A stretch of 64,000 bases of DNA from Eledone cirrhosa (taxonomy: Eukaryota), in the NCBI GenBank assembly GCA_964016885.1, contig OZ024741.1, positions 38,874,001-38,938,000 on the forward strand, written 5' to 3'. The notes under the pieces are model-generated. The model was given only the letters and a program-made list of their open reading frames with translations. It was not told where the DNA came from and did not search any database. This document shows, one piece after another, positions 5,168-48,927 of the stretch. The position numbers were made by a program, and so were the translations under genes. Position 1 is the first letter of the stretch. Each line of letters opens with the position of its first letter.

Positions 5168-5487
5168 TGACCAAACGTTTAACAAGTTTCATTGATTAAT
5201 CAATGAATAAAGTTTTACAATAGATTAGAAGCACTCAACAAAGAGGTTTGCTGGAGTTATTAATATTACTTCAAAATATTAATAAATATAGACATTCATG
5301 TGATCAAATATATTTTATTATACATATTTCAGAGGTACTGTGCTGTTTCATCAGTACGTCCTCATCAGATAAAATAAATTGATGTCTGACATACGTCAAC
5401 TGTGCTGATGGTTCAATTCCAGTCTTGGCAGTGATTAGGTATGACAATACTCAATATTTATATACCATAAATTGTAACGTGACAAAC
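5168..5487 (-). mobile_element. Left arm plus tail of a PLE-type inverted-repeat element; partner arm at 9845-10063
   Basis: 5267-5487 is the imperfect reverse complement of 9845-10063; CTGATGAG...GAAA motif; extra ~100 bp (5168-5266) only on this arm. Confidence 0.65.
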
Positions 5488-5534
5488 TACATATAATAGA
5501 GAGAGTACGTAGGAGAAAGTGTATAAAAATATAA

Positions 5535-5720
5535 TCTATATATATAAAACTGAGGATGTCTGTGTGTGTGTAAGTTTGAATCCCTAAAACTAGAGAAGCA
5601 CCCAACCGACAGTTTTCAAACTTTACATATGTATTACTTATGTTTCAGGAAGTGTTCTGGGCAGAAATTTCAAATGTTCAATGCCCTAAGGACCGCATCA
5701 GACGATTTGGCGATCTCTCT
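5535..5720 (+). mobile_element. Possible non-autonomous Helitron 5' end
   Basis: A|TCTATATATATAAAA followed by TGTCTGTGTG repeats, like the start at 20093; no CTAG 3' end identified. Confidence 0.35.
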
Positions 5721-6762
5721 CTATAATTCTTAGTCTTTCTCTTTTTAGATAGATACATACATATAACGTAGCGCCCTTATACTATCTGTCTGTATGTCTG
5801 CATTACGTCACTTTCTACAATTCGCTCTGCGTCTAGAACGCGCCCTTATAATATTTGTCTGTATGCCTGACTGTCTGCTGCCTCCGGTTAAACGCCACCC
5901 TTACTCAAGACAAATCTCACACTCATTCCCCAAACAGTTGGTAAGTGCACACACCTTCTTCCCCACGTTTTAAACCACAGTTGCTTACTTACGTACCACC
6001 AGACCCTTACTTCTTTGCCAGCCGTGGTCGTGACAATACTAAGCTTAGCTAAGGCGGTTATATATTTTACAATACCTATAAATATAATAAGTATATATAA
6101 AGGCAAGTAAAAGTAAACATATAATTACATAACTGTTAAAAATTTAAATAATTAAATATGTAAACCTCCATATTATAGAAGGAGCAAATGAGAGAGTGAG
6201 AGAGCTAAATAGAGGAGAGAAAGAAAGGATAGAGAGATAATACTAAAAACAAAGAAAGGGAGATATGTATGATAAAATATAATTACATAAGGAGAAGGAG
6301 AATAAAGTTATATGATGCGTGACTGTTTTTTTTTGAAATATTAAGTTAGGTAGAAATAATCAAATAATTAAATAACTTGAAATTGTTAGTCTATATTATT
6401 TGAAAGAAAATATATTATTATATTATATCAAAATTAAAACAAATATATAGTAAAAAAGATAATTTAATTTAACATAATTCCATGAGTATAATTAAATTAT
6501 TAAATATATTCAATAATTTAGTTAGAAAGATCGAAATTAAAAATTAAAAATGTTATTAACTAACCATAGTGCTTTTAAATGTAGTAAATATGATATTATT
6601 AAACCAGATTTATTTAGATATTAGCATTTGTATAGTTCTTTTATAAACTATATGATTTAAATCGATATTTGTCGATTATATATAATAATTATTAGTTATA
6701 ATTACACTTAAGAGTGTTATAATTTTGATATAAATAGATTTTACTGTATCCAATACTATACA

Positions 6763-9283
6763 CTCAGGCACACAATATCCTGCTTGTTTTGGGGGACTTC
6801 AATGCAGATCTGAGTAAGGAGGGCAGTGAAGATCCTTGCTGGTACTTCCATAACAACACCAACCGAAATGGAAGACTACTGAGAGACACCCTGCTGGAGG
6901 CGAACTTGATGGCGACCAACCTAAGGTTTAGGAAGAATCTGGGGAAGATGTGGACCTACATCTCAGATATGCACCTATCCAAGTCCAAGATTGATTTCAT
7001 TCTGGTGAGGAAAAAGTGGCGGAATAGTGTTCTGAACACGGAGCCATACAGCTATTTCAGTACACTGGGTAGTGACCACCGGCTTGTTATGAGTGAGGTC
7101 CGGGTGAGCTTAAGAAAGAGCAAGGCTCGGCCCCGGAGAACAATCTATGACTGGGAGCTTTCAAGGAAGATGAGAAGCTACAGGAGAGGTTCACAGTGGA
7201 GGTGAGAGACAGGTTTAGTGCTCTGTGTGGAGAGTCAGAGGAGAGAGAGATTGGATGGACTGAGGAGAGTGTGACGGGGAGGTACGGGCACATCACCAAT
7301 GCAGTGGCGGAAGCAAGTGAAACCCTGGTGCCGAGGAAAGAGAGCAGGGGGAAGCACGTCAGCTCTGCAAACCCAAAAGTGTGTGCAGCCAGAGAATACC
7401 TGAAAGCTGCCGAGGACCAATTCTATGCTGATCCTACGGAGGAGAGGATGGAGACTTAGGAGGTGATGAGGGAAGAGCTCTGTACCGCTTACACTGAGGT
7501 CAGAGAGGAGGCACTGATAGAGAAGATCAGAAGTGTGGAGAGAGCGGTTGACAGATCTAGATGTAAGGAGAGCTGGATGATCATTAACGAGATCACAGGG
7601 AGGAAGAGAAGGTGTTCGAGTCAGATCCAGGGAACGGGGCCCGAGGATAGGAAGAGGAAATGGCTAGACCATTTTTACCCTACTAGGAGAGCCACCCTCC
7701 ACAGCACAGAGCACAGGGGAGATCAGGCGGCTGTTTGAGGAACTGGATGTTGAGACAGAGCCCTTCACCAGAGAGGAGCTTCAGAGAGCCAAGAAGAGGA
7801 TCAAGGAGGGCAAGGCTCATGGAGAAGATGGAGTGGCATCAGTGGTGATGAAGAGGTGTGATTTTGATGATATCATCCTGGGGTTCTGTAACGGGGCACT
7901 GGAGAAAGGAGTTGCCCCGAATCAGTGGAGGATCAGTAACATCGTCCCAGTACCAAAGAAGGGAGATCTCTCTAACACCAACAACTACCGGGGGATCTCA
8001 CTGACATCACTTGTGGCAAAGACCCTCAACAGGATGATTCTTAACAGGATCCAGCCTGAGATGGAGAAGAAGCTCAGGGACAACCAGAACGGCTTCAGAG
8101 AAGGTAGATCAACCACCAGTCACATCCTGATGCTGAGGAGGATATTAGAGGGAGCTAGAGCAAAGTGCTTTCCTGCGGTCATGGTTTTCATTGACTTTAG
8201 GAAGGCCTTTGATTCTGTGGACCATTACTGCCTGATGAAGATCTTACAGGCTTATGGAGTCCCCAAGAGGATAGTGGACCTGATATCACTGCTCTACATC
8301 AACACCAAAGCCCAAGTCATTACACCTGATGGGATGACAGAGTTCTTTGAGATACTGGCTGGAGTGCTCCAGGGAGATACATTGGCTCCCTATCTTTTTA
8401 TCATCGTAGTGGATTATTGTATGCGCCTTGCACTGGAGAAACACCAGGACTCTGGCCGTACTGTAGCACCGGCTCAGAGCAGGAGAGTTAGGGCGAAAAA
8501 GGTATCGGATGCTGAATTTGCCGACGACATAGTTTTGGTGACAAATACAGTGAAGGAGGCAGAGGATTTGATGCGGGAGGTTGAGACTGTGTCTATGAGT
8601 GTGGGGATGAGAATGAATGAGACTAAAACAAAATATCTGGTAGAGAATGTTGAGAAGCCAGAGGGGATCACTAATGTAGGCGGGAAGCCGCTGGAATTGG
8701 TTGAGGACTTCCTGTATTTGGGAGCAAAGATTGGGAATACGGAAGATGATGTGGTTGAGAGGAAGAGCAAGGTCTGGGCGGCGTGCCACAGCTTGAGATC
8801 GGTGTGGAAATCGGACCTTCGTAGAGACCTGAAAGTCCGCCTCTTCATTGCTGTAGTGGAGTCTGTGCTGCTGTATGGGTCTGAGACTTAGACACTGACC
8901 AAGAAACTCACTCAGATGGTGGATGGGGGCTACACGAGAATGCTGAGGATGGCTCTGAACATTAATCAGTATACACTGAGGATGAAAAACTCAGAGCTGT
9001 ATGGGAGCATCCCAAAAGTCAGCTCAAAAGTGACACAGAGGAGACTGAGGTTAGCTGGACATGCTCACCGACATCCAGAGTTGACATTGCACTCAGTGCT
9101 CCGTTGGGAGCCGCTACATGGACACACTAGAAGTGGAAGACCAAGGTTAACGTATGTTGATGCCCTAAGGACAGACACTGGTCTGTTGGAGACGCAGGAC
9201 ACGGCAGCGATAATGAGGGACAGAGACCGCTGGAGAGAACTCGTCCATGGATCTCGGGAATTTTACCCGCCTTAGATAGATAG
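6763..9283 (+). mobile_element. RTE-clade LINE, 5'-truncated, (TAGA)n tail, 10-bp TSD
   Basis: EN motifs GDFNA, IDFIL, SDHR; RT motifs YRGISL, QNGFR, DFRKAFDSV, GVLQGDTLAP, FADD; TSD ATACTATACA at 6753-6762 and 9284-9293. Confidence 0.92.
6789..9275 (+). pseudogene. RTE EN-RT ORF broken by frameshifts and stops
   Basis: consecutive ORF pieces 6789-7205, 7196-7459, 7463-7738, 7833-8891, 8916-9275 form one colinear EN-RT protein. Confidence 0.88.
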
Positions 9284-47919: not shown

Positions 47920-48196
47920 ATAAGTAAATAAAATAAAATAGAATAAGATAAATAAATACATACACAAGCACAATAACAACAAGCACATAAACACACACTA
48001 GTCACCCAGCAGACACAACACTATACACACTAGTCACACATCACACATAACACTATACACAGACGCAAACGCATGCGCAAAGAAGACAAAATAAAATAAG
48101 ATAAACAAACAAGCAAATAAATAAAGAAATATATAGACAGACTGAATAAAAAATGGCGTAGACATACAACACAACAGGAGGAACAATGAATATAAC

Positions 48197-48237
48197 ACCA
48201 CTGACGATGTTGCAGATGTGCAACGAAAGATTTATGT
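48197..48237 (+). ncRNA. Hammerhead-like motif in PLE 3'UTR/pLTR (mirror ~43031-43071 on -)
   Basis: CTGACGA T GTTGCA-GATG-TGCAAC GAAA GATTTA; stems I and III weak. Confidence 0.55.
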
Positions 48238-48645
48238 AAATTATGTAAACTATATATATGTGTTTGTGTCTATATTGTATCTGTATTATTTTTGACCGCC
48301 GGTCAGTCAATGGCAACATTGAGGACCGAGTAAGTTAGATCGCAGATATAAAAGACAGCGAGAAGCGAAAACCCACCAAACAGTGAGTGTGTTCTGTTAT
48401 TAATTCTGGCAATATTACGCAAATATGACCCTCCCCAAATATAACAATATCTGTTTCGACACACGATTTCATATAAAAAACCTCGCTAAACTATATATAT
48501 ATATATATATATATATATATATATATATATACTGTATATATATATATATATATATATATATATATATATATATACTGTATATATATATATATATATATAT
48601 ATATATATATATATATATATATATATATATATATATATACATGTA

Positions 48646-48927
48646 AAGTTATATTTAAAATTGTTGGGTTACAACTAGTAAATATTTATAACTGATATAA
48701 AAGCACTCGACAAATATTTGGAGTATATTTACAATATTAAATAAATGGAAAACTACATTTATAAAACCATATTTATTTCATGTCGAATCTATTTATCTAT
48801 AAAACTGTTTATATTGTATTTTGTCTGATGAAGGCATAGCATATTGTTAATATGATATCCCCGAAATATATATAATGAAATAAATATGGTTTTATAAATG
48901 TAGTTTTCCATTTATTTAATATTGTAT
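48646..48927. mobile_element. Hairpin + one-sided tail element with hammerhead-like motif
   Basis: arms 48730-48781 and 48875-48926; CTGATGAAGG..CCGAAA at 48825-48866; tail resembles 5229-5266. Confidence 0.65.

Follow-up and report, generated by a model that had tools for sequence, protein, structure and literature searches.

What are the tailed hairpins that interrupt TA repeats in the genome of Eledone cirrhosa, and how do they come about? The question was raised by a 64-kb stretch of this genome (assembly GCA_964016885.1, contig OZ024741.1, positions 38,874,001 to 38,938,000, hereafter the window), for which a first-pass annotation had listed ten loci of one architecture: a simple repeat, two inverted arms that meet head-to-head, a tail carried by just one of them, and again a simple repeat. 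They were proposed to be retro-insertions of the termini of Penelope-like elements (PLEs) resembling miniature inverted-repeat transposable elements (MITEs). The present analysis bore this out: every family had two fixed 3' ends, the centres of all 30 comparable family-A hairpins differed, and five families reached PLE open reading frames (ORFs). The loci are retro-inserted PLE termini, not MITEs. We judge it likely that they are 5'-truncated PLE insertions in TA repeats, whose hairpin and tail arose when both nicked target strands primed cDNAs at two fixed RNA sites, the two products being joined head-to-head. The argument rests on the two fixed 3' ends, the variable and independent 5' ends, the exclusively head-to-head arrangement, the TA flanks and the ORF continuity in five families.

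Two fixed 3' ends and variable centres

The genome was searched with arms or tails from the window, and the matches in the retrieved loci (designated by L numbers) were mapped onto natural reference copies. The tail of family B used alone gave no matches, and a longer B query succeeded. In all eight families (A to F, E2 and P) two 3' ends were recognized, namely the end of the tail and, 45-96 nt upstream of it, another fixed point, the distance being about 78 nt in A, 65 in B, 84 in C, 62 in D, 45 in P, 96 in E, 94 in E2 and 77 in F. Head-to-head pairs of one tailed and one tail-less arm far outnumbered those with two tailed arms in families A (74 versus 4), B (15 versus 1), E (14 versus 0) and P (11 versus 0); family F was the weak case, with 10 mixed and 8 both-tailed pairs. 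No pair had its 3' ends facing each other, and single arms of both types were present. Both ends adjoined TA almost throughout: 107/110 tailed and 59/60 tail-less ends in family A, 42/43 and 15/17 in B, 42/47 and 15/15 in P. The first-pass annotation had asked whether the tail-less arm always stops at the same base and the centre varies, which is what was found; since the 30 family-A centres were all different, the hairpin is rebuilt at each insertion. In family P, a third 3' end was seen 14 nt beyond the end of the window's tail (L117, L119-L121, L129, L130, L133), which suggests three reverse transcriptase (RT) start sites in this family.

Inverted arms, loops and one-sided overhangs were measured at the ten window loci (Table 1). 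The common architecture, with an overhang of 44-100 nt, held for nine of them, and both flanks of all nine measured hairpins consisted of TA or other simple repeats. It did not hold for the locus at 42395-42607, where a single 134-nt family F arm (127/134 identical to an F copy; tail of 77 nt, not 130) stands beside an unrelated palindrome seen nowhere else among the loci examined. The family E locus owes its 4.35-kb 'loop' to the element's own 3' region and two later insertions, one of them a long interspersed nuclear element (LINE) of about 2.5 kb with APE endonuclease and RT; these split the tail-bearing arm of about 1.6 kb (minus strand) at about 5547-6077 and 6763-9287. The family P locus joins a long tail-less copy, running from 46296 to 42821 on the minus strand, to a shorter tailed copy, running from 46297 to 48447 on the plus strand and followed by a 44-nt tail (48448-48491); its arms (42821-44971 and 46297-48447) were identical at 2145 of 2151 positions (99.7%). 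The C-related hairpin at 31306-31659 matched a family C copy at 108 of 149 positions. Of the tail homologies claimed by the first-pass annotation, three pairs were clear (71/76, 54/67 and 59/70 identical) and the fourth (5229 versus 48701) was weak, with 48/56 identities and 10 gaps.

Two further hairpins were noticed, at 24737-24986 and 15987-16446; the former overhangs by 44 nt on one side and has, at 24830, a hammerhead-like fold with an A4 core. Families B, C and D also had relatives that were older or consisted of a single arm, at 31079-31290, 32235-32340, 34504-34579, 34799-35054 and 18904-19048, and hammerhead-like folds were seen in several of these.

Such shapes could be suspected to stem from fold-back chimeras of long reads in the assembly. 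The 99.7% identity of the 2.15-kb arms at 42821-48447 would suit this, and the read check covers family D. Against it, the arms of the short window copies differ by 2-9% and the ends are fixed across hundreds of loci. In raw Illumina reads of another sample, moreover, the tail-less D end was joined to (AT)n at 32783 in 2402 reads, and many different joints crossed the D hairpin centre. These short reads indicate that the shape is not an assembly product, and an artefact is extremely improbable.

Continuity with Penelope-like reading frames

Extension of the families in the 5' direction towards RT and GIY-YIG ORFs, proposed as a check by the first-pass annotation, succeeded for P, D, E and B (the last with RT only), and for A through its sister subfamily A'; for C, E2 and F no ORF was reached in the loci retrieved. 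The upstream walk from family C ended at an internal simple repeat.

The tail-less copy of family P comprises an Asn-rich N-terminal region, RT and GIY-YIG in three ORF pieces. The 475-aa frame of its tailed copy was 35% identical over 460 aa to P0018, a protein of 1003 aa with a Pfam GIY-YIG match (E 6.6e-7). For the P frame itself, Pfam gave no match at E<0.001, and homologues were used for the assignment instead; the RVT_1 match of P was weak. Its N-terminal frame (45178-46314, minus strand) has a long Asn-rich (AAC/AAT)n stretch, present also in L201, which resembles the N-rich inserts reported for rotifer Penelope elements (PMC3846280).

In the other families, D directly followed an ORF 57% identical to P (L206), and a D frame showed the same RT and GIY-YIG motifs when read by eye. 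E lay after RT and GIY-YIG motifs, likewise read by eye (L190), and B after a DKG/RT frame (L193). The long B copy of that locus (L193:956-4968, minus strand) has an internal duplication of about 340 nt and a TATA box after the RT; the duplication carries CCAAT and E2F-like boxes. Subfamily A' runs into RT-GIY-YIG frames of 743 and 790 aa (L344, L346), and a Cys-rich linker precedes GIY-YIG in A' and E. The clade names applied to these ORFs (Neptune, Penelope/Poseidon) are our assumption from motifs, not from a tree. Partial tandems forming pseudo-long terminal repeats (pLTRs) were found in P (L201), A' (L346, L349) and F (L197, L200). In L346, L349 and L201, the tail continues into the 5' region of the next unit, in A' about 95 nt before the first ATG. 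The family A hairpin at 21832-22027 matched the 3' end of the ORF-bearing A' element at 119 of 140 positions, and E2 shares with E its hammerhead layout and a weak tail similarity.

MITEs and foldback elements are short and non-coding, have long inverted arms and TA flanks, and reach high copy numbers. The long inverted arms and TA flanks of the present elements would fit TA-targeting MITEs or foldback DNA transposons with asymmetric ends, driven by a DDE transposase. In the genome sample described below, 12 of 50 edge-anchored hairpins were symmetric, one with mariner-like ends, yet three of these 12 match families A, D and E. What separates our elements from MITEs are their asymmetric ends, variable centres, common single 5'-truncated arms, partial tandems, hammerhead folds and an RT-GIY-YIG partner protein. 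The first-pass annotation had named fixed-length copies with symmetric terminal inverted repeats as the observation that would speak against its reading; instead, two different ends per family, many single arms and 30 differing centres were found. As to a DDE transposase partner, no genome-wide transposase search was made; in five families, it is RT/GIY-YIG frames that the long copies run into. A transposase-driven origin is contradicted by the ORF continuity of P, D, E, B and A', and we regard it as very improbable.

The first-pass annotation had further spoken of a foldback element system. As a separate system this did not stand, and the case is one of ordinary PLE insertion: the inverted copy, the one-ended tail, the TA targeting and the pLTR hammerheads are already published PLE features, so that the architecture as such is known.

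Junctions, 5' ends and hammerheads

Junctions were compared in 128 directly joined pairs from search-selected loci, among which near-duplicates were possibly counted twice. In 37 pairs the 5' end of the tail-less arm reached more than 15 nt further than that of its partner, the reverse was true for 16, and the arms were about equal in 75. As sequence is private to each arm in the 37 pairs, two independent cDNAs are favoured over a fold-back. In the fold-back alternative, a PLE copy would form its inverted arm by self-priming at a palindrome, later deletions making the arms unequal. The near-equal arms of 75 pairs agree with it, as do the many centres that form an almost perfect hairpin, with a small overlap or gap, and self-priming from palindromic junctions has been argued for rotifer Penelopes (PMC3846280). 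It is nevertheless an unlikely account here. The tail-less arm carries 5' sequence missing from the tailed arm in 37/128 pairs, and in the very young family P element of the window it is 1325 nt longer, at an arm identity of 99.7%; the fixed internal stop of the second arm beside TA is left unexplained, and single arms of either type exist.

For priming at two fixed sites, the RNA sites themselves offer a further indication. TA microhomology of 2-5 nt was found at the start sites, at least 2 nt in 12/12 ends with known continuation and at least 3 nt in 10/12.

The 5' ends were not evenly spread in all families. Among the family B arms that no family query had targeted (untargeted arms), 14/24 ended 206-214 nt from the end of the tail, position 212 being 30 nt after the TATA box, and the centre of the window's B hairpin (27244-27588) lies at this hot spot, at 207 nt. 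In family E, 20/46 arms ended at 252-263, and the corresponding position is 262-264, at TCACT. Since these ends lie about 30 nt after TATA, the mini-hairpins of some families are likely copies that run from the transcription start to the tail.

It is also conceivable that the short forms are self-propagating non-autonomous families, with masters like those of short interspersed nuclear elements or retrozymes that already contain the hairpin and are mobilised in trans by PLE proteins. The 5' ends of 115/203 family-A arms fall within 126-143 nt of the tail end, no long copy was found of the window's A subfamily, of C beyond about 480 nt or of F beyond its tandem unit of about 497 nt, and animal retrozymes have been proposed as non-autonomous PLE derivatives (bioRxiv 10.64898/2026.07.22.740005). 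On the other side, the differing A centres show the hairpin to be remade at each insertion, and long copies with an ORF and the same pair of ends exist in A', B, D, E and P. As a general account such masters are rather doubtful; they are compatible with the priming mechanism preferred here and may hold for F and C.

Several observations weigh against double priming at fixed sites, or against parts of it. Later asymmetric deletions could also leave the tail-less arm the longer one, so that the 37/128 pairs are suggestive and not proof. Private variants shared by both arms numbered 7, a value within the permuted range (mean 2.1, maximum 9). The promoter-bounded 5' end fits clearly in family B only: just 1/7 untargeted E arms ends at the position 30 nt after TATA, the A' arms reach a sharp 5' boundary near 141, the reference having no canonical TATA, and no one position is preferred in C, D, F and P. 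The RT start sites described in PMC11167929 are not homologous to the cut DNA, unlike the microhomology found here. The upstream B frame ends at the start of GIY-YIG and the continuity from ORF to element end rests on three loci in this family; the window's A copies are only about 85% identical to the ORF-bearing A' end, and C, E2 and F are without an ORF link in the loci retrieved.

With these reservations, insertion by double priming would proceed as follows. Both target strands would be cut and extended, and two RT start sites would bound the tail, as known from in vitro work on another PLE. One nicked strand would prime cDNA at the distal site and the other at the proximal site, presumably by the 2-5 nt of TA microhomology, and the two cDNAs would be end-joined at their truncation points. 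The abundant forms of 140-260 nt may extend from the pLTR transcription start to the tail, if RT begins at the 5' pLTR sites or on short pLTR transcripts, and would then need no dedicated non-autonomous master. The hammerhead would ride along in the pLTR, the ends not being set by it.

Hammerheads were sought with our own type-I descriptor, which yields fold predictions. Across the window, five canonical folds were detected, every one of them in these arms and at three loci (two each in the family E and D insertions, one in the E2 hairpin); 20 shuffles gave 2 cores in total. The D hairpin has complete folds in both arms (predicted cleavage at 32949, minus strand, and 33170, plus strand), and the E2 hairpin in its longer tail-less arm (predicted cleavage after 48874, plus strand). 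The earlier statement that most arms carry hammerheads thus had to be restricted: complete canonical motifs occur at 3/10 loci, and partial or variant motifs in the B hairpin, where the plus-strand arm alone has a U3-A8 variant fold, and in the A copies, which keep only the GAAA/stem III/GUC half and lack the motif's 5' half, as read from the sequence. The C copy at 32389-32706 has no complete hammerhead, and some longer C copies have a fold with a large stem II. An Rfam scan of the window gave no hammerhead family among the 150 matches listed, and sub-threshold miRNA and snoRNA matches on hairpins and microsatellites.

The genome sample contained 72 canonical folds, against 3 in one shuffle. 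Canonical folds were present in family E (20/25 loci), D, E2 (core in most of 52 arms) and some C copies; variant cores were of the U3-A8 type in B and the A4 type in F. Upstream of family A, a search for the canonical core pattern CTGAnGA gave 16 heterogeneous matches and no family-wide core, and none of 25 family P loci passed the fold test. The long A' copies (L286-L310) keep the fold with a C3/A8 mismatch in 20/25, and this successful subfamily may therefore carry an inactive ribozyme. In family F, head-to-tail units of about 497 nt (L197:7809-8431, L200:3797-4424) had an A4-core hammerhead-like fold in 2 loci and no ORF was found, which makes F a candidate retrozyme.

Hammerhead cleavage was considered as the determinant of the 5' ends and rejected, as 2/52 E2-type arms begin at the cleavage site. 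In these two (window 48781/48875 and L294), the predicted site coincides exactly with the start of the tail-bearing arm. Among untargeted E arms, 3/7 end at 152-154, near the predicted site at 148-151.

Apart from the hairpins, the window is rich in TA microsatellites and LINE fragments. Several APE-RT LINE copies with a separate upstream ORF were seen (12-2627, 37742-41933, 52686-64000), and 52686-55683 and 61004-64000 are direct repeats with 96% identity. A TA-flanked element of about 660 nt with short inverted ends occurs twice (19037-19692 and 33560-34217), in opposite orientation and 95% identical.

Table 1. Insertions and associated features in the 64-kb window (window positions)
Feature	Position	Strand	Details
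Family E insertion, 3' end of a presumed Neptune-like PLE	5168..10062	-	tail of about 96 nt at left end
Family E arms	5268-5487 / 9843-10062		overhang 100 nt; tail-less inverted arm 9843-10062 on +
Predicted complete type-I minimal hammerhead fold, family E	5312..5376	-	CUGAUGA core, 8-bp stem I, self-complementary stem III; predicted cleavage 5319
APE-endonuclease/RT LINE nested in E arm, not part of the PLE	6738..9287	+	
Same predicted hammerhead fold, E tail-less arm	9954..10019	+	predicted cleavage after 10011
Family A mini-hairpin	21832..22027	+	arms 21832-21887 / 21895-21950; tail 21951-22027 (77 nt)
Family B hairpin	27244..27588	-	tail 27244-27309 (66 nt); arms 27310-27446 / 27450-27588
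Single tail-bearing family B arm	31079..31290	+	no inverted partner; absent from the first-pass list
C-related hairpin	31306..31659	-	85-nt left overhang; arms 31391-31463 / 31589-31659
Second family A mini-hairpin	31777..31973	+	arms 31777-31832 / 31838-31894; 79-nt tail
Family C hairpin	32389..32706	-	85-nt tail; arms 32474-32577 / 32603-32706
Family D hairpin	32727..33325	-	60-nt tail; arms 32787-33042 / 33077-33325
Family F single 5'-truncated arm	42474-42607 within 42395..42607	+	after unrelated 76-nt palindrome 42402-42477
Near-full-length PLE, family P	42821..48491	both	two unequal copies head-to-head
RT-C-terminus/GIY-YIG frame of P tailed copy (475 aa)	46492..47919	+	
Family E2 hairpin	48640..48924	-	92-nt tail; arms 48732-48781 / 48875-48924

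Abundance, relation to known systems and meaning

Abundance was estimated from 60 evenly spaced 10-kb tiles (600,000 bases) of the 3.0-Gb assembly, in which 417 inter-TA segments were scored. An edge-anchored inverted arm was found in 50/417 segments and in 0/417 shuffled segments. A one-sided overhang of 25-140 nt was present in 31 of these hairpins, 12 were symmetric and 7 had a longer overhang. The 31 hairpins span 9,443 of the 600,000 bases (1.6%), and 23 of them match one of nine references or hold a hammerhead fold, a few of the matches possibly coming from a neighbour within the segment. Extrapolation gives about 1.5x10^5 copies genome-wide, a rough figure as the tiles lie mostly on the largest contigs. 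Symmetric TA-flanked inverted-repeat elements, comprising two families of variable length and one with mariner-like ends, were observed at L228:7516-7848, L270:9432-9632, L258:3023-3420, L276:7470-8220 and L263:3209-4068, and are possibly true MITEs. Separately, L314-L318 (C4:320.0-320.9 Mb) are one locus in five near-identical copies within 1 Mb, a local segmental duplication.

A mechanistic parallel is the twin priming of L1, in which one RNA is copied from both strands of the target and an inversion results when the products are joined. The internal position at which the second primer of L1 anneals varies, and there is hardly any overlap between the two parts. In our elements the two start sites are fixed and near each other, and the cDNAs would therefore overlap and form a hairpin.

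Within PLEs, the first-pass statement that hammerhead-bearing pLTRs, inverted 5' copies and short tails are known agrees with the literature (PMC8557442, PMC3846280, PMC4209133, PMC11167929). Craig et al. in 2021 described an inverted 5'-truncated copy, a tail of 30-40 bp at one end and (TA)n targeting, with the mechanism left undefined (PMC8557442). Arkhipova et al. in 2013 reported head-to-head inverted pLTRs and the tail, together with a motif of TATA plus TCACT, ORF inserts rich in Asn and small RNAs antisense to PLEs; they proposed self-priming (PMC3846280). Our elements share with such canonical PLEs, which have a C-terminal endonuclease (Penelope/Poseidon, Neptune), the RT and C-terminal GIY-YIG ORF, the 5' truncation, the partial-tandem pLTRs, the head-to-head truncated copy, the one-end tail, the microsatellite targeting, the TATA plus TCACT motif in the pLTR and the Asn-rich ORF stretches. 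They differ by tails of 45-96 nt instead of 30-40, by an ORF-free hairpin of 150-600 nt as the commonest product and by the additional 3' end of family P. A curation guide also mentions inverted pLTRs with short extensions (PMC8969392).

Poseidon of Anolis (PAc) was studied in vitro by Frangieh et al. in 2024, who found both target strands cut and extended and RT starting at two sites that bound the tail (PMC11167929). PAc thus resembles our families in having two adjacent internal start sites that define the tail, an AT-rich target and dispensable hammerhead cleavage. In contrast, its start sites lie inside the ORF and those of A' upstream of the first ATG, and the passages covered of that paper do not tie both-strand extension to the inverted copy. 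The origin of PLE inverted copies and one-sided tails is called unresolved in PMC8557442 and PMC11167929.

For hammerheads, Cervera and De la Pena described minimal motifs, a U3-A8 variant and, in Schistosoma, motif pairs 100-700 bp apart on opposite strands (PMC4209133); these pairs are probably the same hairpins as here. Both sets share the U3-A8 core variant and a short palindromic helix III predicted to act as a dimer. The present pairs differ in being resolved as tailed and tail-less arms, and in the C3/A8 core of A' and the A4 core of F. Animal non-LTR retrozymes, tied to PLE pLTRs in a 2026 preprint (bioRxiv 10.64898/2026.07.22.740005), are likewise non-coding, hammerhead-bearing PLE derivatives, which family F matches with its tandem units; they are defined by head-to-tail tandems, whereas a single head-to-head pair is the usual form here. 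Penelope-like and MITE families are listed in a repeat annotation of an octopus; hairpins of the present kind are not discussed in the passages covered (PMC13282606).

Relative to these published features, the abundance, the two-cDNA signature, the TA microhomology, the likely promoter-bounded 5' ends of some families and the longer tails are what this genome adds. No report of fixed-site twin priming for PLEs or of mini-hairpin counts was found in the open literature; subscription papers, repeat-database reports and supplements may cover them.

Annotation pipelines could mistake the hairpins for MITEs or for miRNA precursors; Rfam gives sub-threshold miRNA-family matches only. Their predicted folds pair 71-90% of the bases and, if transcribed, they would be ready-made long double-stranded RNA (dsRNA), from which a role in ADAR editing or piRNA pathways may be supposed. 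As a tentative generalization, it is possible that PLEs insert by fixed-site twin priming, that two TA-microhomology sites downstream of the promoter make mini-hairpins the main product, and that the resulting 10^5 or so near-perfect hairpins of 50-250 bp (more than 1.5% of the DNA) are a leading dsRNA source for ADAR and small-RNA pathways upon read-through of introns and untranslated regions. For the insertion mechanism of PLEs, the value lies in the number of cases: with about 10^5 short natural events in many families, start sites, truncation points and junctions become countable, and such a sample could separate twin priming from self-priming and test the promoter start of the short forms.

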